Part shown: one piece after another, positions 30,315 to 39,959 of the stretch
Position numbering within the stretch: position 1 is the first letter of the stretch
How the letters are laid out: every line of letters starts with the position of its first letter
Assembly (NCBI GenBank): GCA_040751775.1
Contig: JBFMGD010000003.1
Coordinates: forward strand, 19,201 to 83,200
Length of the DNA: 64,000 nt
Reading direction: 5' to 3'
From: Bacillota bacterium
GTDB lineage: Bacteria > Bacillota > Dethiobacteria > DTU022
Translations under genes and position numbers: made by a program
Notes under the pieces: generated by a model
Database searches by the model: none
Told to the model about the DNA's origin: nothing
The model's input: only the letters and a program-made list of their open reading frames with translations

Positions 30315-31970
30315 GTGCTTTCTGATCTGCGTTTGGCAAAGCCCTGGTGCGATATCCTAGACGCCCTGGATGAAGCGATTATTCTGCTCGATCAAGATCT
30401 GCGGGTCGTGCTCTGCAACGCCAAGGCCGGCCGGCTCTGCGGCTCCGATCCCGAGCGGTTCCTGCAAACAATGCTGGAACCGAAACTGGGCAAAGAGGGC
30501 GCGGCGCCGCCCGATCTGGAACTGGCGGGCAAACTGTTTTCAGTGCAAACAATCGAAACCGCGGAGCGCGCCTGGATCTTGCTGCGTGAAAAACGCTCCG
30601 GCTTGCCGGCGGGCGAGGCAGGCCGCCTCCTGCTGCAGGCGATTATCGATTCGCTTTCCGACGCTGTCTCGGTGGTGGACGAAAACGGGATGGGCCTGAT
30701 GTTCAATCGCGCCTATACCCAGCTGACCGGGTTGAACGAAGACCAGGTGCTGCAGCAGCCGGCAACAGTAGATATCGCCGAGGGGGAAAGCGTCCATTTT
30801 AAAGTTTTAAAGACCGGGAAGCCGGTGAAAGGGGTGCGCATGAAGGTTGGCCCGTACAAACGCGATGTCGTGGTCAGCTGCGCTCCGCTGGTGATCAACG
30901 GCCAACTGAAGGGCAGCGTCGGGGTGATCCACGATATCTCCGAGATCAGGCGTTTGCTGGAGGAGTTGGCGCGGACAAGACACCTGGTGCGCCGCCTTGA
31001 ATCCCGCTACACTTTTGAAGATATCGTCGGGCAGAGCTGCCGGTTGCGAGAGACGGTGGAGCGTGCCCGCCAGGCGGCGGGAACCCCGGTCAGCGTACTG
31101 CTCAGAGGAGAGTGCGGCACCGGCAAAGAGTTGGTCGCCCACGCCATCCACCACACCAGCGAGCGGGCCGAACAGCCATTTATCCGGGTCAATTGCGCTT
31201 CGCTTACCGATACCCTCCTGGAAAGCGAGCTCTTCGGTTACGCCGACGGCGCTTTTACCGGTGCGAAGAAGGGCGGGCGCAAGGGCTATTTTGAGGAAGC
31301 GCACCGGGGCACCTTGTTTCTGGATGAAATCGGCGCGATGAATCAGGAAGCGCAGGCCAGGCTGCTGCGCGTTTTGCAGGAAGGGGAAATTATGCGCGTC
31401 GGCGAATCCAGGTCCCGGGCGATTGACGTGCGGATTATCGCCGCCACCAACGCCGATTTGGAAGAGATGGTTCAGGGCGGCCGTTTCCGCAAGGACCTCT
31501 ATTACCGCCTGAACGTATTTCCGATTACCCTGCCCCCGTTAAGGGAAATTAGAGAAGATATCCCCCTTTTGGCCGATTACTTTGTCAAAAGATACGGCCA
31601 GGAATACGGGCGCCTGGCGGTGGACATTTCACCGGCTGCGTACCGGCGCCTGCAGGAATATGCCTGGCCGGGCAATATGCGCGAGCTGCAGAACGTGATC
31701 GCCCGGGCCTTGATCAACCTGGGCCGGGATGAGGTGATCATCGGCGAAGAGCACCTCACGATTCCCTTCGCCACTCGCGGCGGGGAAATAGAAAGCGCGG
31801 CAGAGTCCTACCGGGGAGGCGCCCTGGCCGAACTGCAGCAGGCCTGGGAAAAAGAGTTGATTCAGAATGTTTTGCAGCAGACAGGCGGCAATAAAACCGA
31901 GGCCGCCCAGCGTCTGAAAATCTCCATCCGCACGCTCTACAACAAGATCGAGCGCCATCAGCTGCAATGA
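30315..31970 (+). CDS. bkdR: PAS-domain sigma-54 enhancer-binding protein, BkdR-like
   Basis: GECGTGKE, ESELFGY..GAFTGA, FLDEIG, DLYYRLNV, WPGNMRELQN, Fis-type HTH; PAS segment ATVDIAEGESVHFKVLKTGKPVKGVRMKVGP resembles Bacillus BkdR as I recall it. Confidence 0.75.
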   Translation: MLSDLRLAKPWCDILDALDEAIILLDQDLRVVLCNAKAGRLCGSDPERFLQTMLEPKLGKEGAAPPDLELAGKLFSVQTIETAERAWILLREKRSGLPAGEAGRLLLQAIIDSLSDAVSVVDENGMGLMFNRAYTQLTGLNEDQVLQQPATVDIAEGESVHFKVLKTGKPVKGVRMKVGPYKRDVVVSCAPLVINGQLKGSVGVIHDISEIRRLLEELARTRHLVRRLESRYTFEDIVGQSCRLRETVERARQAAGTPVSVLLRGECGTGKELVAHAIHHTSERAEQPFIRVNCASLTDTLLESELFGYADGAFTGAKKGGRKGYFEEAHRGTLFLDEIGAMNQEAQARLLRVLQEGEIMRVGESRSRAIDVRIIAATNADLEEMVQGGRFRKDLYYRLNVFPITLPPLREIREDIPLLADYFVKRYGQEYGRLAVDISPAAYRRLQEYAWPGNMRELQNVIARALINLGRDEVIIGEEHLTIPFATRGGEIESAAESYRGGALAELQQAWEKELIQNVLQQTGGNKTEAAQRLKISIRTLYNKIERHQLQ

Positions 31971-31997: not shown

Positions 31998-32720
31998 CTA
32001 ATGGGTTATGATCATCCCGTCTTGCAGCTTTACCTGCCCGCGGCAGTGGTCCATGACTCCCTGGTCATGGGTGGCCACTACCACGGTCAGCCCTTCGCGG
32101 TGAAGGCTGTCCAAAAGCTCCATGATCTGATCCCTGGTTTGCGAATCCAGGTTGCCGGTTAACTCGTCCGCCAGGATCAGCCGCGGTTCCCGGACCAAAG
32201 CCCTGGCAATCGCGACCCGCTGCTGCTCCCCGCCGGAAAGCTGGGCGGGTTTATGGCGCGTTCTTTCGCCAAGCCCCACCCGTTCCAGCAGGATCTTCGC
32301 CCTGGCCGCGGCGGATTCCCCGGGAATGGACCGGCGTTTGCCGGTCTGCCCCCCGGCCTCGTGCAGATACGGCAAAAGCGGGACCATCACGTTTTCCAGA
32401 GCCGTAAGCTGGGGCAGCAGGCGGAAGTCCTGGAACACGAAGCCCACCGTTTTCGCGCGCAGAGCGGTCAGTTCCTGAGGCTTCGCGGCGCCGGTACAGA
32501 TGCCGTTGAGATAGACTTCCCCTTCCGTAGACAATTCCATCGCGCCGATGATCCGCAGCAGCGTAGACTTGCCGGAGCCGGAATGGCCAACCACGGCCAA
32601 GTAATCCCCGGCCTTGATTGCCACGGATATGTTTTGCACGGCGCGGACTTCGCTATAGCCCATATGATAAATCTTGGTCGCGTTTATTAATGTAACGATA
32701 CTGACATTATCTTCAGTCAT
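31998..32720 (-). CDS. LolD/MacB-type ABC ATPase, no permease partner visible
   Basis: [43 protein letters not shown]. Confidence 0.9.
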
Positions 32721-33765
32721 TACTTTGTCCCTCCTTAGTCACTTCCCGCAACACGCGGTCAAGGAAGCAGATATCTTGGCCCAAGATTTCGGGGATGATC
32801 CGGTCCAGGGTATCTTTATGGGTATTGCTGTAGGGCGAAAACCGCCAGTAGGTTGCCGTCGGCGCTCCGGTTTCCAGCAGGCGCAAACCTAAGTCTGTGG
32901 GAGATGCCGGCAATACCCCGATTTTTAGGTCCTTATCCACTGTTTCCGCTGCGGTCATCCAGTGATCCGGTGTGACCATTATTTCTGCCCGGCCTTCGGA
33001 ACTTAGCCGTTTATAGATGTAAGGGTAATCAAGGTCCCATAAATGGCTCCTGTGCTGGGGCGGCGGGTCGATGAACTTGATATAATCTTCCGGCGCCAGG
33101 TCCGGGGCGTCCGGAGGCAAATCCCGGGGCCTGCCGAAAAGGGTGTCGCGCCTGAAACCAAAGACAGCCGGTTGATCGGTCCCCAACCGGCACAGAGCCA
33201 GGGCGGCGCCGGGCAGGGTTTGTTCGTCCAGGTAGTGAGCCAGCCCTCCGGTGTATTGAGCGTCACCGCCCGCGGTCCACATGATCCTTACAGGGACAGG
33301 CAGCGGATTATCGTTCAGAAGCCGGGCGAGCACGGCGGCCCCGGCCGCGCCGCTCGCGTTGTCCGACACGCCCGGACCGATACTGCCGTGGTTCGTGATC
33401 ATCCAGACCGGTTCGCCTTCGGCCGCTGTACCGGGGTTATCCACTCAAATATTTTCCGAAGTGTACCCCGGAATTATTTCAAGAACCTTCAAGATTAATA
33501 TGGCAGGTTTTTCCGCGTTTACCGTACCCGGATTGACACCCACTATCGCCAAGGGAGTCGCTTCAAGCTGAAAAATCCACTGCCCTTCTTCAACCAGTTC
33601 CATGACAGGCTTGCCCTGGACAGTCAATCAGTGGAAAAATACCTGTCCGTCTTTAACGCCTGTGGGGACCGGCTGGAATACTGCCGCGCCGTCTTCTTCC
33701 AGGGCTTGATAGGCTATGCCGCGCGTGGTATAGTACCCGGTCGCCGGGGCGATATAATGCAGGCC
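32713..33765 (-). pseudogene. Decayed M28-peptidase-like gene with two in-frame TGA codons
   Basis: One frame runs 33765 to 32713, broken by TGA at 33630-33628 and 33447-33445; SENI*VD...TNHGSIGPGVSDNASG resembles the M28 N-x-x-...-AHxD...GAxDNASG block; several Zn ligands absent; no start codon found. Confidence 0.6.
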
Positions 33766-33829: not shown

Positions 33830-33845
33830 TGGTACGGCAATTGCA
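33830..33845 (+). promoter_or_regulatory. Sigma-54 (-24/-12) promoter for the Leu/Val dehydrogenase and oxidoreductase operon
   Basis: TGGTACG-GCAA-TTGCA versus TGGCACG-N4-TTGCW; about 50 bp upstream of the start. Confidence 0.85.
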
Positions 33846-33897
33846 AACTAATGAATACAAAATAAAGAAAAGTTAAACAACGGGAGGGTTGCATGGT

Positions 33898-34959
33898 ATG
33901 GCCGGTTACTTCGGCAGAATGGAGTCCCTGGGTTTTGAAGAGCTGATCATGGTGCACGACTCCCCGACAGGGCTGAAAGCGGTCATCGCCATTCACAGCA
34001 CCTTGCGCGGTCCGGCTTTGGGCGGCACCCGGATGTGGGCCTATCCATCCGAAGAGGCGGCGGTGGAAGATGTGCTCCGCCTGGCCCGCGGGATGACCTT
34101 CAAAGCCGCGGCGGCGGAGCTTTCCCTGGGAGGCGGCAAGGCGGTAATCATGGGCGATCCCGGGCGGGATAAGAGCAAGGCGCTGTTTCAAGCATACGGC
34201 CGTTTCGTGGATAGGCTGCAGGGCCGTTTTCTAACCGCCGAGGATATGGGCACCTGCGAGCAGGACCTGGACTGGGTCCGCGCGGAGACCGCGCATGTGA
34301 TCGGGGGCAGCGCCTGCGGCAGCCCGTCTCCGTATACGGCGTACGGGGTCTGGCGCGGCATGAAAGCCGCGGCCGCGGCTGCTTTCGGCAGTGCATCCCT
34401 TTCCGGGCTGGTTGTGGCGGTCCAGGGCCTGGGCGGCGTAGGTAGTTGTCTGTGCCGCTACCTGGCCGAAGAGGGGGCGGCGCTGATCGTCACGGATTTG
34501 GACGCGGCCAGGGCTGCCGCGGCGGCGAAGCAATGGGGCGCCCGGGTTGTGAAAGCGGCGGATATTTATGCGCAAAAGTGTGATATCTTTGCGCCGTGCG
34601 GCGTCGGCGCGATCATTAATGCCGAAACCATCCCGCTGCTACAGTGCCGGATCGTCGCCGGCGCGGCAAACAATGTCCTGCTGGAAGAAGCCGACGGAGT
34701 TGCCTTGCACCACCGCGGTATATTGTATGCTCCTGATTACATCATCAACGCCGGTGGCTTGATCTTTGTAGATGCATGCCGCAGGGGCGCCGCCGATTCC
34801 GATCAAGTTTACCGGGATACGGGCCGGATTGAGGGGAGGCTGGCCCGGTTGTTCCACCGGGCCGCCGGACAGGGTTTAACCCCGGAAGCTGCGGCCGCTC
34901 TGCTGGTGGAAGAAAATATGCGCAAGCAAGCAAACAGCGAACCGGAAATAGCGCCGTAG
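33898..34959 (+). CDS. Glu/Leu/Phe/Val dehydrogenase, leucine/valine dehydrogenase-like
   Basis: IHSTLRGPALGGTR, LGGGKAVI, TAEDMG, VQGLGGVG, GAANN, YAPDYIINAGG. Confidence 0.9.
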   Translation: MAGYFGRMESLGFEELIMVHDSPTGLKAVIAIHSTLRGPALGGTRMWAYPSEEAAVEDVLRLARGMTFKAAAAELSLGGGKAVIMGDPGRDKSKALFQAYGRFVDRLQGRFLTAEDMGTCEQDLDWVRAETAHVIGGSACGSPSPYTAYGVWRGMKAAAAAAFGSASLSGLVVAVQGLGGVGSCLCRYLAEEGAALIVTDLDAARAAAAAKQWGARVVKAADIYAQKCDIFAPCGVGAIINAETIPLLQCRIVAGAANNVLLEEADGVALHHRGILYAPDYIINAGGLIFVDACRRGAADSDQVYRDTGRIEGRLARLFHRAAGQGLTPEAAAALLVEENMRKQANSEPEIAP

Positions 34960-35020
34960 AGAAGAATGAACCTGGCTGCATGCAAAATTCTGCAAATTGC
35001 AGTTGAAGGGAGGCGGCAAA

Positions 35021-35605
35021 ATGGAAGGGTTAACCGAATTTCGATTACACGGCCGGGGCGGCCAGGGCATTGTGATGGCGGCGGCCATATTCGCGGAAGC
35101 CGTTTTTAATGAGGGCCTTTACGCCCGCGCCTTTTCCCTTTTCGGAGCGGAGCGCCGCGGCGCCCCGGTAACCGCCTTTATCCGGGTCAGCGAGGCCCGG
35201 TTGATGCCGCGCTGCCGGGTCTACCGGCCGGATTACGTCGCGGTTCTTGACTCGAGCATGAACAGCACCGCCGTTCTGGCGGGGCTTGATCAAAAGAGCA
35301 GGCTGCTGATCAATGCCGACCGGGATGAAAAAGCCGCGCGTTTTGGGGAAGGGACGGCAAATGAGCGTTACCCGGCATATCTAGTGGACGCAACCGGCCT
35401 CGCCATGCAGTATCATCTCACGATCGGCAGTTTTCCGATGGTGAACACGGTCATGGTGGGGGCGCTGGCGCGGATTAGCAATTTGGCCACCCTGGAGAGT
35501 GTCTGCGCGGTGGTTGAAAAACGGATCTCCACCCGCCTGGAAGACAATCTCAAAGCGGCCGCGGTGGGCTTTAATCAGGTCAGGGAGGTGATCGCCGTTG
35601 CTTAA
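35021..35605 (+). CDS. 2-oxoacid oxidoreductase gamma subunit
   Basis: FRLHGRGGQG, FGAERRGAPV, NTVMVGAL. Confidence 0.92.
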   Translation: MEGLTEFRLHGRGGQGIVMAAAIFAEAVFNEGLYARAFSLFGAERRGAPVTAFIRVSEARLMPRCRVYRPDYVAVLDSSMNSTAVLAGLDQKSRLLINADRDEKAARFGEGTANERYPAYLVDATGLAMQYHLTIGSFPMVNTVMVGALARISNLATLESVCAVVEKRISTRLEDNLKAAAVGFNQVREVIAVA

Positions 35606-37151
35606 CCGGGCGGATCGGCCAAAAGCGCTTTACTCGTGCGGCGATAGGCCGTCCCTGGACAACAAGACCGGCGATTGGCGCCAGATTACGCCAACCGAAG
35701 CGGGCCGGCCCTCGCCGTGCCGGCAGGCCTGCCTTTTGGATGGCGAAATACCCGCGTGGCTGGAGGCGGTCAAGGGGGAGCGCTGGGAGGAAGCGTGGCG
35801 GATCATGCGCCGCTCCAACCCCTTTCCGGCGATCACCGGCCGCGTCTGTTTTCACCCTTGTACCATGGAGTGCAACCGCCGCTTGATGGATCAGGCGATC
35901 GATATCCCGGCAATGGAACGGGCCATCGGTATGTGGCGCCTGGAGCGTTACCGTCCTCCCGCCGCGCCGCGCGTTTTACGGGGCCGGGTGGCTGTGATCG
36001 GTTCAGGGCCGGCGGGCTTAAGCTGCGCTTACTATCTGAATGAGGCCGGTTACCGCGTGACAATCTTTGAAAAGGCCCCGGTGGCGGGCGGGATGCTGGC
36101 CCTGGGCATTCCCTCTTACCGGCTGCCCCGGGAGCTGTTGGCCGAAGAGTTAAAGGTATTAACCGCGGACGGCGTGCAATTCAGGCTGGACAGCGCCTTG
36201 GGCCGCGACTTTAACCTTGAACAACTGTACGGCGAGTTCGATCAGCTTTTCCTCGCTACCGGCGCCTGGCGCTCCCGTGCACTGAACATACCGGGAGCGG
36301 ACCGGCCGGGAACTTGGAGCGCCTTGGATTATCTAACCCGGATTCACCTCGGCGAAACCGTGCCCCTGGCGGAACCGGTGGTGGTGATCGGCGGCGGCAA
36401 CGCCGCGGTGGATGCGGCGCGCACGGCCCTGAGAGAAAACGGGATGCGGCGCGTCAGCATTCTCTACCGCCGGAGCAGGGCAGAGATGCCTGCCGATCCA
36501 GCTGAAGTGGAAGCGGCGGCGGCTGAAGGGGTGGAGTTAATCTTTAACGTCATCCCCCGGGAGATAAAAGGCGGCGAACCGCTGCTGAAAGTGCTGCTCG
36601 ACCGCACCGTTTCCGGAGACGGCGGTGTGAAAATATTGCCTGACGACCCTGTTTCCATGGCTGCCGGCAGCCTGATCTACGCCCTGGGACAGGAGCCGGA
36701 CCTTTCTTTCCTTGACCGGCTGTCCCAGCCGCGATTTTTCTACGCCGGCGGTGACCTGATCACCGGTCCGGCTACCGTTCCCGAAGCGATCAAAGCGGGC
36801 CGCATCGCCGCCCAGGCCATCGCCGGCCGGCTTGCCGGGCGGCCGGAAACGGCGGCGCCGCCGGCCCAGGGCGCGCCGGTGACCTTTGACCAATTAAACC
36901 TATGGGCTGTAACCGCGCCCCAACCGGTGGAGCGCCAGGCTGATCCGGCGGAGGAAGCGGGGCGCTGCCTGGGGTGCGGCACCTGTAACTCGTGCGGGAT
37001 CTGCTACCTGTTTTGCCCCGACGTGGCGGTGCAGCGCGAACAGGGCCGCTATTCAATCAATCTGGACTACTGTAAGGGTTGCGGCATCTGCGCCCGGGAA
37101 TGCCCGGCGCGGGTGCTGACCCTGGAAGGAGGCGCGGGCTATGCCAGTTGA
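35598..37151 (+). CDS. GltD/NfnB-like FAD/NAD(P)H oxidoreductase fused to a PorD-type 2x[4Fe-4S] delta domain
   Basis: NPFPAITGRVCFHPC, VIGSGPAGL, VIGGGNAA...YRRSRAEMPA, C-terminal CNSCGICYLFCPD...YCKGCGICARECP. Confidence 0.85.
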   Translation: MLNRADRPKALYSCGDRPSLDNKTGDWRQITPTEAGRPSPCRQACLLDGEIPAWLEAVKGERWEEAWRIMRRSNPFPAITGRVCFHPCTMECNRRLMDQAIDIPAMERAIGMWRLERYRPPAAPRVLRGRVAVIGSGPAGLSCAYYLNEAGYRVTIFEKAPVAGGMLALGIPSYRLPRELLAEELKVLTADGVQFRLDSALGRDFNLEQLYGEFDQLFLATGAWRSRALNIPGADRPGTWSALDYLTRIHLGETVPLAEPVVVIGGGNAAVDAARTALRENGMRRVSILYRRSRAEMPADPAEVEAAAAEGVELIFNVIPREIKGGEPLLKVLLDRTVSGDGGVKILPDDPVSMAAGSLIYALGQEPDLSFLDRLSQPRFFYAGGDLITGPATVPEAIKAGRIAAQAIAGRLAGRPETAAPPAQGAPVTFDQLNLWAVTAPQPVERQADPAEEAGRCLGCGTCNSCGICYLFCPDVAVQREQGRYSINLDYCKGCGICARECPARVLTLEGGAGYAS

Positions 37152-38283
37152 GATGATTACCGGGAACCAGGCCGCCGCTCTGGCCGCACAGCGAGCCGGG
37201 GTGGACCTGGTGGCCGCTTACCCGATCACTCCCCAGACCGCCATCGTGGAATATCTGGCCGAGTTTTGGGCCCGGGGTGAGCTGGGCGGGGAATTTGTGA
37301 GCGTGGAATCGGAATATGCCGCTCTGGCCTGCAGCAGCGGCGCCGCGGCGCTGGGCGCCCGTACTTTTTCCGCCACCTCATCACACGGCCTGGCATATAT
37401 GCATGAAATGCTGCACTGGTGCGCCGGGGCGCGTTACCCGATGGTCCTGGTTAATGTGAACCGGGCCCTGGGCGCGCCGTGGTGCCTGGAGCCTGACCAG
37501 GGAGACAGCCTCAGCCAACGTGACACCGGTTGGCTGCAGCTGTATTGCGCAAATGCCCAGGAAATATTTGATACCATCTTGCAGGCATTCGCCCTCGCTG
37601 AAACGATCATGATCCCTTGCATGGTTGTTTTCGACGGTTTCTATCTTTCCCACACCTATGAAGCGGTGGAAGTGCCGGACCAGGAAACGGTGCGCCGCTT
37701 TCTGCAGCCCCCTTCTTTTGATCCGCCGCTGGTCCCCGGCCGGCATGCCAACCTGCATGCTTTGACCACGGGAGAGGTGCAAACCGGGCTGATCCGCGAA
37801 CGCCACCGGGTGATGCAGGGGGCTGCAGCTGTTTTGGCCGAGATCGACACCCGCTTTCAAGCAGTCTTCCAGAGGGGTTACGGCGCTTTGGCCGCGGAGA
37901 TACCGGCCGGCGCGAAAACAGTGGTTTTGGCGGCGGGCAGCTGCGCTGAAACTGTGAGGTGGCATCTGCCTCACCTGGCCGGAACAGGGCTGATCAACCT
38001 GAGAATGTTCAGGCCGTTTCCGGGTGATATCCTCTGCCGTATGCTGGAAGAAAAAGCGGTGGAGCGAGTGGTGGTCGTCGATCGCAACTGTTCGCCCGGC
38101 GTGGGAGGTATTCTGGCCCAGGAGCTGAAAGCAGCCCTTTACCGGATGGCGCAGCCTCCGGTTGTGCATGACCTGCTATTGGCCGGCGGTATCGATTTCA
38201 CACCGCGGATGCTGACTGAGGCCCTGGCGGAAAAAAGAGCCAGTGCAAGATCTGCCGAGATCTGGGGGGTGGAACTGTCATGA
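37141..38283 (+). CDS. 2-oxoacid oxidoreductase alpha subunit
   Basis: TGNQAAA, AAYPITPQT, VESE, TFSATSSHGL, RMFRPFP. Confidence 0.93.
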   Translation: MPVEMITGNQAAALAAQRAGVDLVAAYPITPQTAIVEYLAEFWARGELGGEFVSVESEYAALACSSGAAALGARTFSATSSHGLAYMHEMLHWCAGARYPMVLVNVNRALGAPWCLEPDQGDSLSQRDTGWLQLYCANAQEIFDTILQAFALAETIMIPCMVVFDGFYLSHTYEAVEVPDQETVRRFLQPPSFDPPLVPGRHANLHALTTGEVQTGLIRERHRVMQGAAAVLAEIDTRFQAVFQRGYGALAAEIPAGAKTVVLAAGSCAETVRWHLPHLAGTGLINLRMFRPFPGDILCRMLEEKAVERVVVVDRNCSPGVGGILAQELKAALYRMAQPPVVHDLLLAGGIDFTPRMLTEALAEKRASARSAEIWGVELS

Positions 38284-39167
38284 TCGGGGAGAACAAGGGC
38301 CAGGTAACCGAAATGCTTTACCCGGGACATTTTGCCTGCCCCGGATGCGGCGCCGCCCTGACGGTGCGCTATTTGACCCGTGCCCTCGGTGAGGATCTGG
38401 TAGTGGTGATTACCGCCTCTTGTTGGAGCATTATCGCCGGGGTGCCGCCGCTAACCGCATTGAAATGCCCGATCCTGCACTGCCCGTTTCCGAGCGCCGG
38501 CGCGGTGGGCGGCGGGGTCAGGCGCGGCCTGGACGTCAAGGGAGCGCACGGTACCACCGTTGTAGTTCTGGCCGGCGACGGCGGGACATTTGATATCGGC
38601 TTGCAGGCTCTCTCCGGAGCCGCCCAACGCAATGAAAATTTCATTTTCGTTTGTTACGACAATGAGGCTTATATGAATACCGGGATGCAGACCAGTTCAG
38701 CCACGCCGTACGGCGCCCGGACCAACACAGCTCCCTACCCCCTGTTTAAAGAAGGGCGTAAAAAAGATATTATCCAGATCATGTCGGCTCACGGTATACC
38801 CTACGCCGCCACGGCCACGGTCGCCTTTCCCGACGACCTCGAGCAAAAATTCCGGAAGGCCAAGGAAATAGAGGGCTTTCGATTCATCCATGTCCTCTCA
38901 CCATGCCCGCCGGGTTGGGGCGTTGAATCGGCGGAAACGATTCAGATTTCCCGGTTGGCGGTGGAAACATGCTTTTTTCCGCTTTATGAAATTATCGACG
39001 GCGGTTCCATGCAGTTGACCTACCGCCCCCCTGTCCAGAAAAAGCTGGAGCAGTACCTGTCGGCGCAGCGGCGCTACAGCGGTTTGCATGAACAGCAGCT
39101 CGAGAAGCTGCAGCAGGATGTTGACCGGCATTGGGAGAAGCTGCTCCGGTTGTCCGGTCGATCCTGA
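38280..39167 (+). CDS. 2-oxoacid oxidoreductase beta (TPP-binding) subunit
   Basis: GHFACPGCG, GDGGTFDIG...YDNEAYMNTG, LSPCPPGW. Confidence 0.93.
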   Translation: MIGENKGQVTEMLYPGHFACPGCGAALTVRYLTRALGEDLVVVITASCWSIIAGVPPLTALKCPILHCPFPSAGAVGGGVRRGLDVKGAHGTTVVVLAGDGGTFDIGLQALSGAAQRNENFIFVCYDNEAYMNTGMQTSSATPYGARTNTAPYPLFKEGRKKDIIQIMSAHGIPYAATATVAFPDDLEQKFRKAKEIEGFRFIHVLSPCPPGWGVESAETIQISRLAVETCFFPLYEIIDGGSMQLTYRPPVQKKLEQYLSAQRRYSGLHEQQLEKLQQDVDRHWEKLLRLSGRS

Positions 39168-39239: not shown

Positions 39240-39959
39240 TCAATCAAAAATTTCTTCGAGTTTAATATGCAGTCCGTCAAAAAGCATGGACCGCAAAAGA
39301 TCATCCTTTACGAAAAGCCTCATAGCCGCAACGTCTTTATCTTTGAACATGTATACTATTACTTCCCTGCTGAAGTAGTTTACGATCCAGTATTCCTGAA
39401 TTCCGGTCTGCATATAGAGGTCGAGTTTTTTGACAAGGTCCATCCGGGACGAAGTTTCGGAGAGCACTTCAATGACAAGTGAAGGAATACCCGTATACCT
39501 GTCTTTTGCATTTTTATTTTCCGGATCACATATGACCAGAATATCCGGCTGCACCACATTCATGCCGTTCTCACCCTTCTTTAAAATGACATCAAAGGGT
39601 GATAGGTAGGGCATACACTGCTTCCCTTTGAACCAGGCGGAGACAATGACAAATAAGTTCCCGATGATCCGCTGGTGAGTTATCTTTGGGGAAGCAAGCA
39701 AAAATACTTCACCGTCGATATACTCGTACCTTTCCTCTGTTTTTTCATACATCTCCATAAATTCTTCATAACTAATTTTTTTACCGTGATACCCGTATGA
39801 AGCGGACTGTTCCCACACCTTGCCGGCATCGTGCCAACTGTCAAGCTTCGTTAGCCTCGCTACCGGCGTCCCGTTTTTCGTGACAATGATATCTTCCCGG
39901 TCAAGCAATTTAAGGTATTTCCCAAAATTATTCTTCATATCGGTCGCTTTAATGATCAT
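39240..39959 (-). CDS. Phd/YefM-domain plus Uma2 (DUF820) PD-(D/E)XK nuclease fusion
   Basis: N-terminal IKATDMKNNFGKYL...IIVTKNGTPVARL; C-terminal YEYIDGEV...HQ, VQPDILVI, LVIEVLS, KKLDLY...IQEYWIV; AT-richer than flanks. Confidence 0.85.
   Translation of the reverse strand: MIIKATDMKNNFGKYLKLLDREDIIVTKNGTPVARLTKLDSWHDAGKVWEQSASYGYHGKKISYEEFMEMYEKTEERYEYIDGEVFLLASPKITHQRIIGNLFVIVSAWFKGKQCMPYLSPFDVILKKGENGMNVVQPDILVICDPENKNAKDRYTGIPSLVIEVLSETSSRMDLVKKLDLYMQTGIQEYWIVNYFSREVIVYMFKDKDVAAMRLFVKDDLLRSMLFDGLHIKLEEIFD

Follow-up and report, generated by a model that had tools for sequence, protein, structure and literature searches.

A GltD-type flavoprotein module inserted in the delta subunit of a probable 2-oxoacid:NADP+ oxidoreductase from a bacterium of the class Dethiobacteria

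Organization of the operon

The window, a 64,000-nucleotide stretch of a Bacillota genome (assembly GCA_040751775.1, contig JBFMGD010000003.1), carries an operon for a 2-oxoacid oxidoreductase (OFOR) that begins with the gene for an amino-acid dehydrogenase. The features at this locus are as follows.

30315-31970: sigma-54 activator gene
33830..33845, + strand: sigma-54-type -24/-12 promoter-like site, TGGTACGGCAATTGCA, 44 nt 5' of the first gene of the operon
33889..34959, + strand: leucine dehydrogenase-like ELFV amino-acid dehydrogenase (ELFV_dehydrog_N and ELFV_dehydrog domains)
34997..35605, + strand: OFOR gamma subunit (PF01558 POR; TIGR02175 PorC_KorC, 164 bits, above cut-off)
35598..37151, + strand: flavoprotein-bearing delta subunit, 517 aa (ORF, domain, conservation and model evidence)
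37141..38283, + strand: OFOR alpha subunit (POR_N and PFOR_II domains)
38280..39167, + strand: OFOR beta subunit, with TPP and one [4Fe-4S] cluster (TPP_enzyme_C)

The 517-aa ORF starts with TTG, and a GGAGG motif lies 9 nt 5' of the start. It overlaps the gamma gene by 8 nt (gamma stop at 35603-35605) and the alpha gene by 11 nt (alpha ATG at 37141), confirming the original prediction that both neighbours are overlapped, while the alpha and beta genes share an ATGA overlap. The ORF is real, and is translationally coupled to the OFOR gamma gene upstream and to the alpha and beta genes downstream.

The best matches of the alpha subunit are PorA_Arch (320 bits) and VOR alpha (298 bits), and those of the beta subunit are PRK11864 (3-methyl-2-oxobutanoate dehydrogenase beta, 359 bits) and PorB (335 bits), each below its own cut-off. 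As both catalytic subunits fall below every curated POR/VOR cut-off, the substrate is assigned solely from gene context, which points to keto acids derived from leucine and valine. The top solved relatives of the dehydrogenase encoded by the first gene are leucine dehydrogenases (6acf_A, 358 bits; 1leh_A, 341 bits), with lower scores against tryptophan (296 bits) and phenylalanine (196 bits) dehydrogenases. The promoter-like site has one mismatch relative to TGGCAC-N5-TTGCW; sites of this kind are no more frequent in the window than expected by chance, and this one is suggestive only by its position. In the two closest related loci (L005 and L006), the order activator, leucine dehydrogenase, OFOR is the same as in the window.

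A split delta subunit with a permuted module

The delta subunit is built from parts of two different protein families, in the following order.

35637..35699, + strand: PorD N-terminal arm, residues ~14-34, NKTGDWRQITP (hhalign)
35712..35939, + strand: second half of the GltD Fe-S domain (C41, C45, C84, C88, C92, E107)
35979..36839, + strand: FAD- and NADPH-binding module (G135-x-G137-x-x-G140; GGGNAAVD; R175)
36465..36476, + strand: YRRS loop, Y290-S293, predicted site for the 2'-phosphate of NADP(H)
36930..36980, + strand: relocated first segment of the GltD Fe-S domain, EEAGRC457LGC460G
36981..37127, + strand: PorD-type 2x[4Fe-4S] ferredoxin domain (C463, C466, C469, C473; C492, C495, C498, C502)

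An Fe-S/FAD module near the N-terminus, a YRRS loop and a PorD-type C-terminus had all been predicted, and each was recovered: Pfam places Fer4_20 at residues 39-114 (profile positions 30-108) and Pyr_redox_2 at 130-374, the loop is at Y290-S293, and the dicluster domain occupies residues 462-508. This last domain matches PFOR delta (9bt4_G) with an E-value of 2.6e-13 and PorD_Arch over positions 33-80, with scores below both PorD cut-offs (52.9 vs 60.05 bits for TIGR02179, and 61 vs 120 for NF040684). The GxGxxG motif of the Pyr_redox_2 region and a second Rossmann motif mark FAD and NAD(P)H domains of the adrenodoxin-reductase-like kind. Conservation was counted over 81 family sequences from many phyla. 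The glycines G135, G137 and G140 are present in 81/81, the cysteines of the ferredoxin domain in 80-81, and the loop residues Y290, R291 and R292 in 77, 76 and 76 respectively, with ALE, VFE and SLE as rare variants (L071, L074 and L076). In GltD, NfnB and DPD, the YRR loop binds the 2'-phosphate of NADP(H). The top NCBIfam match of the whole protein is PRK12771 / NF009410 (417.9 bits, below the cut-off of 516), a model under which NCBI records name proteobacterial relatives ‘NAD(P)-binding protein’; the window protein is therefore a divergent relative of that family of unnamed function. Its predicted structural model has a pLDDT of 87.8 and a pTM of 0.87.

The first cysteine pair of the GltD cluster had been thought to be missing. 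It is indeed absent from the N-terminus, where TIGR01316 matches only from position 36, but it has moved rather than disappeared: the segment with C457 and C460, both conserved in all 81 sequences, aligns with the N-termini of canonical NfnB and GltD (hhalign probability 98.1%, E 9.6e-14). Pfam, applied to the C-terminal 88 residues, returned only generic Fer4 families and no Fer4_20. Judged from these alignments, the placement of the canonical EA.RCLxC segment after the FAD module is a circular permutation, common to StnC/NfnA-type modules; the same placement occurs in paralogues encoded by this genome and in 9bov_A. All the GltD-type ligands (seven Cys and a Glu) are present in permuted order, namely C41, C45, C84, C88, C92, E107, C457 and C460, of which the first five are found in 81/81 sequences and E107 in 80/81. 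In the alignment with StnC, the place of E107 is taken by K170, which in that protein supplies the FAD-proximal cluster with its fourth ligand (PMC10482914). Since all 15 cysteines are invariant or nearly so in the 81 sequences, four [4Fe-4S] clusters are predicted, leading to FAD. Going by homology, the distal GltD-type cluster would be held by C41, C92, C457 and C460, so that the two chain ends of the permuted module would meet there, and the module could be spliced between a docking arm and the first cysteine of a ferredoxin fold.

Such an arm does precede the module. The N-termini of the family align with those of canonical PorD proteins from the same order (PorD positions 6-30; hhalign probability 91.3%, E 9.4e-7), a homology demonstrated by profile-profile comparison only; the N-terminal 41-45 residues alone gave no match in Pfam, NCBIfam or PDB sequence searches. 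Arm residues T24, G25, W27 and R/K28 are found in 71-73 of the 81 sequences. The arm has a low pLDDT (~40-56) in the predicted model, as expected if it docks on partner subunits. The small ferredoxin subunits of the other OFORs in this genome lack the PorD arm and so are useless as comparators for it. Because residues ~14-34 correspond to the PorD arm, the flavoprotein is inserted within delta and not fused ahead of it; the original prediction of a fusion holds in that both parts are in one ORF, and requires correction as to their order. The four-subunit enzymes PorABCD and VorABCD also have gamma, alpha and beta subunits, and PorD (TIGR02179, NF040684; 9bt4_G) has in common with the window protein both the arm (KTGxWR...P) and the two CxxCxxCxxxCP motifs with the DYCKGCGIC signature. 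Unlike PorD, the window delta is split by a module of ~420 aa, which separates its arm from its ferredoxin domain by about that number of residues.

Relatives and distribution

The best sequence and fold matches are StnC and NfnA of NfnABC (8oh5_C, 9bov_A and 9n5u_A; E 1e-62 to 1e-73, Z 36-39). In these permuted modules, as in the window protein, the first Cys pair lies behind the FAD module and another Fe-S domain comes next; for 9bov_A (Z 39.1, model residues 34-482) and 8oh5_C (Z 37.7, model residues 32-489) the match covers the relocated segment and continues into that domain. In contrast, the VIA-align match to canonical NfnL (5jfc_L; Z 34.1, rmsd 2.0, 375 aligned, model residues 35-414) ends at residue 414. 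The GltD-like domain of StnC spans aa 102-565 and contains two clusters, which supply the chain of clusters after it (PMC10482914). The StnC/NfnA modules differ from the window module in residing in NuoG/Fdh-like subunits of Bfu-type transhydrogenases, and in having Lys as the proximal-cluster ligand where the window family has Glu. NfnB/NfnL and GltD share the fold (Z 30-34), the FAD and NADPH sites, the YRR loop and the Glu ligand with the window protein, but they have EA.RCLxC at the N-terminus and a chain that ends after the FAD domain. A 468-aa ORF on another contig (C45) was considered as an NfnB paralogue and rejected, being a dihydrolipoyl-dehydrogenase-type protein.

The 80 related loci come from many phyla, and 70 of them have OFOR genes within 4 kb. 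This neighbourhood is typical of copies with the arm (69/71) and rare for those without it (1/9). Canonical PorD genes coexist with the split-delta form in genomes of the same order. A literature search found no paper on a four-subunit split-delta form, and a 2021 review of GltD-like modules does not include the OFOR form in its list (PMC8097209). The split-delta design is widespread, has been named only generically, and has a biochemically studied three-subunit relative.

That relative is an oxidoreductase of Azoarcus evansii that acts on 2-oxoglutarate and is specific for NADP+; among studied enzymes it is the nearest precedent. In 2003, Ebenau-Jehle, Boll and Fuchs reportedly found this enzyme to pass electrons to ferredoxin and NADP+, and its subunits are said to be of 63, 62 and 37 kDa. 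A matching three-gene cluster (595, 622 and 351 aa) is present on plasmid 2 of Aromatoleum aromaticum EbN1 (NC_006824.1, 4890-9594), and from the subunit sizes just given we take it to be of the same type as the purified enzyme. Aligned with the window protein, the EbN1 flavoprotein shows 30% identity; it is likewise encoded next to OFOR catalytic subunits, and its motifs come in the same permuted order, starting with PPC..AC, with EA.RCLxC behind the FAD module and a dicluster domain at the C-terminus. It differs in lacking the PorD arm, in a long insert in the ferredoxin domain, and in having V-R-S in place of the YRR loop. The three-subunit EbN1 enzyme has a core of the KorA/KorB type, with an alpha subunit of 622 aa and a beta subunit of 351 aa, whereas gamma, alpha and beta are separate in the window; the substrate also differs, being 2-oxoglutarate in A. 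evansii rather than the branched-chain keto acids proposed here. A protein search with a relative from the Rhodocyclaceae gave no Azoarcus, Aromatoleum or Bradyrhizobium names among its matches.

Two other systems also resemble the window enzyme. Phenylglyoxylate:NAD+ oxidoreductase (PadEFGHI) is also an OFOR made pyridine-nucleotide linked by an extra flavoprotein part, and the window gamma, delta, alpha and beta subunits match Pad models weakly. However, PadH (epsilon) is a separate, unrelated Pyr_redox-type protein, and the PadH model NF045765 has four matches in the genome (the best, 162.7 bits, on contig C42), none of which is the 517-aa ORF, so the analogy holds at the level of function only. 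The pyruvate:NADP+ oxidoreductase of Euglena and Cryptosporidium is likewise a 2-oxoacid oxidoreductase covalently joined to an NADP+ reductase; there the added part is a C-terminal FMN/FAD domain of the cytochrome-P450-reductase type on a single-chain PFOR, unlike the GltD-type module within delta.

Probable electron acceptor and function

The product of the operon, in which the order is leucine dehydrogenase, gamma, flavoprotein-delta, alpha and beta, is probably a 2-oxoacid:NADP+ oxidoreductase that acts on keto acids formed from branched-chain amino acids. The leucine dehydrogenase-like enzyme would deaminate an amino acid to the 2-oxoacid, which would be decarboxylated on TPP in alpha/beta to give the acyl-CoA. 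Two electrons would leave singly through the [4Fe-4S] cluster of beta and then the two PorD-type clusters (C463-C502), pass to the distal GltD-type cluster (C41 and C92 with the relocated C457 and C460), then to the proximal cluster (C45, C84, C88, E107), and so reach FAD, which would reduce NADP+ at the YRRS Rossmann site. The net chemistry would be that of the branched-chain 2-oxoacid dehydrogenase complex, but with NADPH as the product. From the ligands and motifs we infer the occupancy of these cofactor sites, the electron path and the specificity for NADP+. With an NADPH-binding flavoprotein spliced into delta, electrons probably go straight to NADP+ and not to free ferredoxin. Direct wiring to NADP+ was part of the original prediction and gains support from the continuous chain of predicted Fe-S ligands to FAD, the conserved YRR, the OFOR clusters at 70 of 80 related loci, and the precedent of A. 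evansii, whose flavoprotein subunit is a GltD homologue (PMC10134865). With NADP+ as acceptor the step would be strongly exergonic and effectively irreversible. Counting against this reading, such a sink for electrons at -500 mV would squander energy, an odd trait in an organism that is probably a syntroph.

An alternative is an enzyme with two acceptors, in which the PorD-type clusters would be open to free ferredoxin, so that ferredoxin or NADP+ could be reduced according to need and reduced ferredoxin and NADP+ equilibrated even without a 2-oxoacid, as by a built-in ferredoxin:NADP+ reductase. This is rather unlikely, although the complete PorD ferredoxin domain has been kept, the A. evansii enzyme is reported to reduce both ferredoxin and NADP+, and the genome lacks a canonical NfnB, with no TIGR01316 match above cut-off. 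No ferredoxin docking site is evident in the sequence, and other NADPH-linked permuted GltD modules in the genome (contigs C37, C6 and C33) could serve an Nfn-like role. There is a small chance that the complex, besides being a branched-chain 2-oxoacid oxidoreductase, serves as the ferredoxin:NADP+ link of the cell, splitting electrons of -500 mV between ferredoxin and NADPH and standing in for the canonical NfnAB that is absent; the associated idea of the permuted GltD module as a portable adaptor, which might be spliced into any Fe-S protein, is equally tentative.

The bifurcating or confurcating flavin that was also envisaged, which as in NfnB/NfnL would couple the oxidation of the 2-oxoacid to NADP(H) and to a further acceptor or donor, found no support and is improbable. 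Its attraction lies in two residues: the proximal-cluster ligand E107 is Glu as in NfnL rather than the Lys of StnC/NfnA (PMC10482914, PMC12018979), and R175, conserved in 80/81 sequences, is the counterpart of the NfnL Arg that contacts flavin N5. Yet the Glu proves nothing by itself, since a Glu(Cys)3 cluster is found in non-bifurcating GltS as well (PMC8097209), and non-bifurcating StnC/NfnA carry the same Arg, there pointing away from N5. The closest solved modules, those of the permuted StnC/NfnA-type branch, have a non-bifurcating FAD (PMC10482914, PMC12018979), and the score against TIGR01316 (229.5 bits by hmmscan; 217 bits over positions 36-387 in the genome scan) is far from the cut-off of 471.75. 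NfnB needs an NfnA partner, and the operon has no NfnA/NfnS-like gene; the three PyrK-like (DHODB_Fe-S_bind) genes of the genome are on other contigs (C12, C67 and C20). The encoded proteins offer electrons just one route to the flavin, a low-potential chain by which both would arrive. Least probable of all is operation in reverse, as an NADPH-driven synthase that carboxylates branched-chain acyl-CoA so that valine, leucine or isoleucine is made from volatile fatty acids. OFORs are in principle reversible, as is the amino-acid dehydrogenase, but at ~-320 mV NADPH is too weak a reductant for a couple near -500 mV unless energy is added, and the arrangement of a sigma-54 BkdR-like activator with leucine dehydrogenase is catabolic in Bacillus.

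If the preferred reading, a 2-oxoacid:NADP+ oxidoreductase, is true, many anaerobes and facultative bacteria in at least 12 phyla would gain NADPH rather than reduced ferredoxin when 2-oxoacids are oxidized, and redox and energy balances would shift in metabolic models of amino-acid fermentation and syntrophy. Anaerobes would then have an equivalent, based on TPP and Fe-S clusters, of the branched-chain 2-oxoacid dehydrogenase complex, and a function would be available for a very large family that is now labelled ‘NAD(P)-binding protein’ or ‘FAD-dependent oxidoreductase’. How a GltD-type module can be inserted into other Fe-S proteins is explained by the circular permutation, which also unites the OFOR-embedded form, the NADP+-dependent 2-oxoglutarate oxidoreductase of A. 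evansii and the modules of Stn/NfnABC in a single branch of the GltD family.

Operon and domain structure

The flavoprotein-bearing delta subunit (flavoprotein-delta) is encoded by an ORF of 517 residues, tightly packed between the gamma and alpha genes of a 2-oxoacid oxidoreductase (OFOR). Its TTG start, which follows a GGAGG at a spacing of 9 nt, sits 8 nt within the gamma gene (TAA at 35603-35605), while its TGA (37149-37151) sits 11 nt within the alpha gene, which begins at ATG 37141 with a GGAGG of its own. The alpha and beta genes overlap as ATGA. Homologues of 513-520 aa are consistent with the length and start of the ORF.

Genes and sites in the window, and domains of flavoprotein-delta
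30315-31970: sigma-54 activator gene
33830: -24/-12-like site TGGTACGGCAATTGCA, upstream of flavoprotein-delta
33889-34959: leucine-dehydrogenase-like gene, upstream of flavoprotein-delta (assigned by solved-relative scores)
34997-35605 (+): OFOR gamma
35598-37151 (+): flavoprotein-delta
residues 39-114: Fer4_20 (Pfam), profile positions 30-108
residues 130-374: Pyr_redox_2 (Pfam)
near the C-terminus: Fer4 motifs (Pfam)
37141-38283 (+): OFOR alpha
38280-39167 (+): OFOR beta

The amino-acid dehydrogenase is closest to solved leucine dehydrogenases (358 bits, versus 296 for tryptophan and 196 for phenylalanine dehydrogenases). Between the sigma-54 activator and this gene lie two minus-strand ORFs (31998-33444), an ABC-type ATPase and a 243-aa ORF with no Pfam match; in the related loci L005 and L006, unlike the window, the dehydrogenase directly follows the activator. 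Directly after the OFOR operon, a single minus-strand ORF (39240-39959) joins a Phd/YefM antitoxin-type N-terminus to a Uma2 nuclease domain.

The best NCBIfam match is PRK12771 ‘NAD(P)-binding protein’ (418 bits; cut-off 516), followed by a series of GltD-like models, and PorD models cover residues 462-508. The nearest solved sequence is NfnA of Thermococcus sibiricus NfnABC (9n5u_A, E 7e-73), then the Caldicellulosiruptor NfnABC large subunit (9bov_A), StnC (8oh5_C) and, after these, NfnB/NfnL, GltD and DPD. For the C-terminus, the solved match is the PFOR delta of 9bt4_G. An AlphaFold2 model from an alignment of 126 sequences has high confidence (mean pLDDT 87.8, pTM 0.87; below 50 only at residues 1-22 and 512-517), and aligns by VIA-align with 9bov_A (Z 39.1, model 34-482), 8oh5_C (Z 37.7, model 32-489) and NfnL (Z 34, model 35-414). 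The ORF, domains, solved relatives and model therefore bear out the original prediction of a GltD/NfnB-like flavoprotein with a PorD-type part in an OFOR operon.

The split delta subunit and the permuted GltD module

The flavoprotein and delta do share one chain, as had been proposed, but by insertion rather than N-terminal fusion. Residues 14-34 read ...RPSLDNKTGDWRQITP, and canonical PorD from genomes of the same order has ...PGNSRKFKTGSWRTFRP, then seven residues, then the first ferredoxin-fold Cys. A profile of the family N-termini matches PorD positions 6-30 (91.3% probability, E 9.4e-7, profile-profile), and at the C-terminus the PorD models match from position 33 onward only. Together these matches indicate that delta is split, with its arm N-terminal, its dicluster domain C-terminal and ~420 residues of flavoprotein between. 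Among 80 related loci, OFOR gamma, alpha or beta genes lie within 4 kb of 69 of the 71 copies with the TGWR/K motif and of 1/9 without it (Fisher p 1.4e-8, overstated since relatives are not independent), and the arm behaves much as a docking element would.

The first Cys pair of the GltD cluster, noted as missing, is absent from the N-terminus but has been relocated. Canonical NfnB of a related genome starts ...ERIKNYNEVPFGYDAETAMKEAARCLQCKEAKCVEGCP, and the corresponding part of the window's protein begins only at the third-Cys equivalent (SPC41RQAC45); the TIGR01316 match to canonical NfnB starts at position 2-3, and that to the window's protein and its kind at 33-37. Past the FAD module, the lost segment is found again as EEAGRC457LGC460G, and the PorD Cys series starts three residues on, at C463. 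Most family members still show the canonical segment in full in this linker (RR.S.FDEV..GL....A..EARRCLSCG), and the linker profile matches the N-termini of five canonical NfnB/GltD proteins (98.1% probability, E 9.6e-14, profile-profile). This genome's three other GltD-like proteins (contigs C37, C6 and C33) have the same permuted order, as do 9bov_A (EASRCLECG at 557-566) and, by the authors' domain limits, StnC, whose GltD-like domain (residues 102-565) holds two [4Fe-4S] clusters, C7 and C6 (PMC10482914). The relocated segment and its recurrence elsewhere indicate that the module is a circularly permuted GltD domain, both chain ends meeting at the distal cluster. In the window's protein and its closest relative, L005, the linker (36897-36992, alignment A7) is ~20 residues shorter than in L009-L070; the RR.S.FDEV..GL part is gone and EEAGRCLGCG alone is kept.

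Distribution and paralogues

Relatives number in the thousands by protein search, many of 513-560 aa and with this set of domains. In NCBI records they are called ‘NAD(P)-binding protein’ or ‘FAD-dependent oxidoreductase’, and JGI gives the double name ‘glutamate synthase beta subunit-like oxidoreductase / 2-oxoacid:ferredoxin oxidoreductase delta subunit’. The window's gene order, gamma-flavoprotein-alpha-beta, is seen at 24 loci, and gamma-alpha-beta-flavoprotein at 46, mostly in Actinomycetota and Pseudomonadota. About ten genomes of the same family have a ~519-aa orthologue. Only the two closest relatives, a Syntrophomonadaceae MAG and a Bacillota MAG, also have the sigma-54 activator and leucine dehydrogenase with the cluster. 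In Phenylobacterium zucineum, a plasmid-borne relative (NC_011143.1, 150563-152203) immediately precedes a single-chain nifJ gene for pyruvate:ferredoxin oxidoreductase, and a dihydroorotate-dehydrogenase-like gene comes next; thus the module also pairs with OFORs that already own a delta domain.

The window's own genome has six OFOR alpha-type genes, one a single-chain PFOR. The arm is absent from its other small ferredoxin subunits, which marks flavoprotein-delta as one specialised paralogue. On contig C37 (7371-8588), a ~650-aa protein, L085, combines a NuoF-like C-terminal Fe-S motif (CGRCIPCR) with a permuted GltD module ending EAERCACC, and looks like part of a Stn/NfnABC-type transhydrogenase. 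A 737-aa frame on C33 (2004-5216) joins a GXGXG-type domain, like the glutamate synthase alpha C-terminus, to a permuted module; its tail is RCxxC-plus-dicluster as in flavoprotein-delta, without the PorD arm. The ~595-aa permuted module on C6 (38369-39559) starts directly at PPCQAAC and has EARRCLTC after the FAD domain, then a dicluster ferredoxin domain.

Predicted electron path and physiological role

Conservation was assessed in 81 sequences, the window and 80 related loci from Bacillota, Actinomycetota, Pseudomonadota, Gemmatimonadota, Planctomycetota, Bacteroidota, Desulfobacterota and others. Invariant are the GxGxxG glycines and C41, C45, C84, C88, C92, C457, C460, C463, C466, C469, C473, C492, C498 and C502; C495, E107 and R175 are each found in 80/81, and Y290, R291 and R292 in 77/81, 76/81 and 76/81. 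L071, L074 and L076 have ALE, VFE or SLE at the YRR loop instead, and the acidic residue suggests that these members may prefer NAD+. E107 aligns with StnC K170, which supplies the non-Cys ligand to the cluster nearest the FAD; NfnL and GltS have Glu at this place (PMC10482914, PMC12018979, PMC8097209). From homology to DPD, NfnB and StnC, the predicted ligands are C45, C84, C88 and E107 (proximal cluster), C41, C92, C457 and C460 (distal), and C463, C466, C469, C502 and C473, C492, C495, C498 (PorD clusters). C460 and C463 are three residues apart, and in StnC the cluster next to the distal GltD cluster lies in the domain after the relocated segment, which makes it natural to read the PorD clusters and FAD as linked in one continuous chain.

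NADP+-linked OFORs are already known, as are GltD-type modules of the StnC/KGOR branch. The Azoarcus evansii enzyme, reportedly purified by Ebenau-Jehle et al. in 2003, is said to have subunits of 63, 62 and 37 kDa with FAD, TPP and Fe-S, to be specific for NADP+ over NAD+, and to have served ferredoxin too. Plasmid 2 of Aromatoleum aromaticum EbN1 has three adjacent genes (595, 622 and 351 aa), annotated in order as FAD-dependent oxidoreductase and 2-oxoacid:acceptor oxidoreductase alpha and beta; their sizes fit those reported for the A. evansii subunits. The EbN1 flavoprotein (30% identity) shares the order of the window's protein, with PPC..AC-type Cys at the front, EAERCLNC behind the FAD module and a dicluster at the C-terminus. 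It lacks the PorD arm. In a proteogenomic paper (PMC10134865), the A. evansii 2-oxoglutarate:NADP+ oxidoreductase alpha subunit is grouped with the GltD homologues, in one clade with NsoC, and NsoC-type proteins are the nearest solved relatives of the window's protein (PMC10482914). With the fit in size and layout of the EbN1 cluster, it is very probable that an OFOR already studied biochemically carries this permuted module on a KorAB-type core. PadH was rejected as an analogue, being unrelated. No paper in the literature searched describes the four-subunit split-delta form.

The original prediction had electrons wired to NADP+ or to a bifurcating flavin. Direct wiring is likely, and a hard-wired 2-oxoacid:NADP+ oxidoreductase is the reading with most support. 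The data do not support bifurcation at the FAD: no NfnA/NfnS-like partner is encoded in the operon, the genome's PyrK-like genes are on other contigs, a single low-potential chain would deliver both electrons, and the FAD of the nearest solved modules is non-bifurcating; the Glu ligand and conserved Arg occur in non-bifurcating enzymes as well. Reverse operation driven by NADPH alone is implausible on thermodynamic grounds. The enzyme may also serve free ferredoxin; of the open readings this dual role is the most interesting, since a TIGR01316 profile scan of this genome found no canonical NfnB. Overall, the earlier interpretation is partly supported, circular permutation accounting for the ‘missing’ Cys pair.

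The four-subunit split-delta form is widespread and generically annotated. As a 2-oxoacid:NADP+ oxidoreductase, it would use keto acids made by the co-transcribed leucine-dehydrogenase-like enzyme and take over the function of a branched-chain 2-oxoacid dehydrogenase complex, and a transhydrogenase of the L085 type could recycle the NADPH so made.
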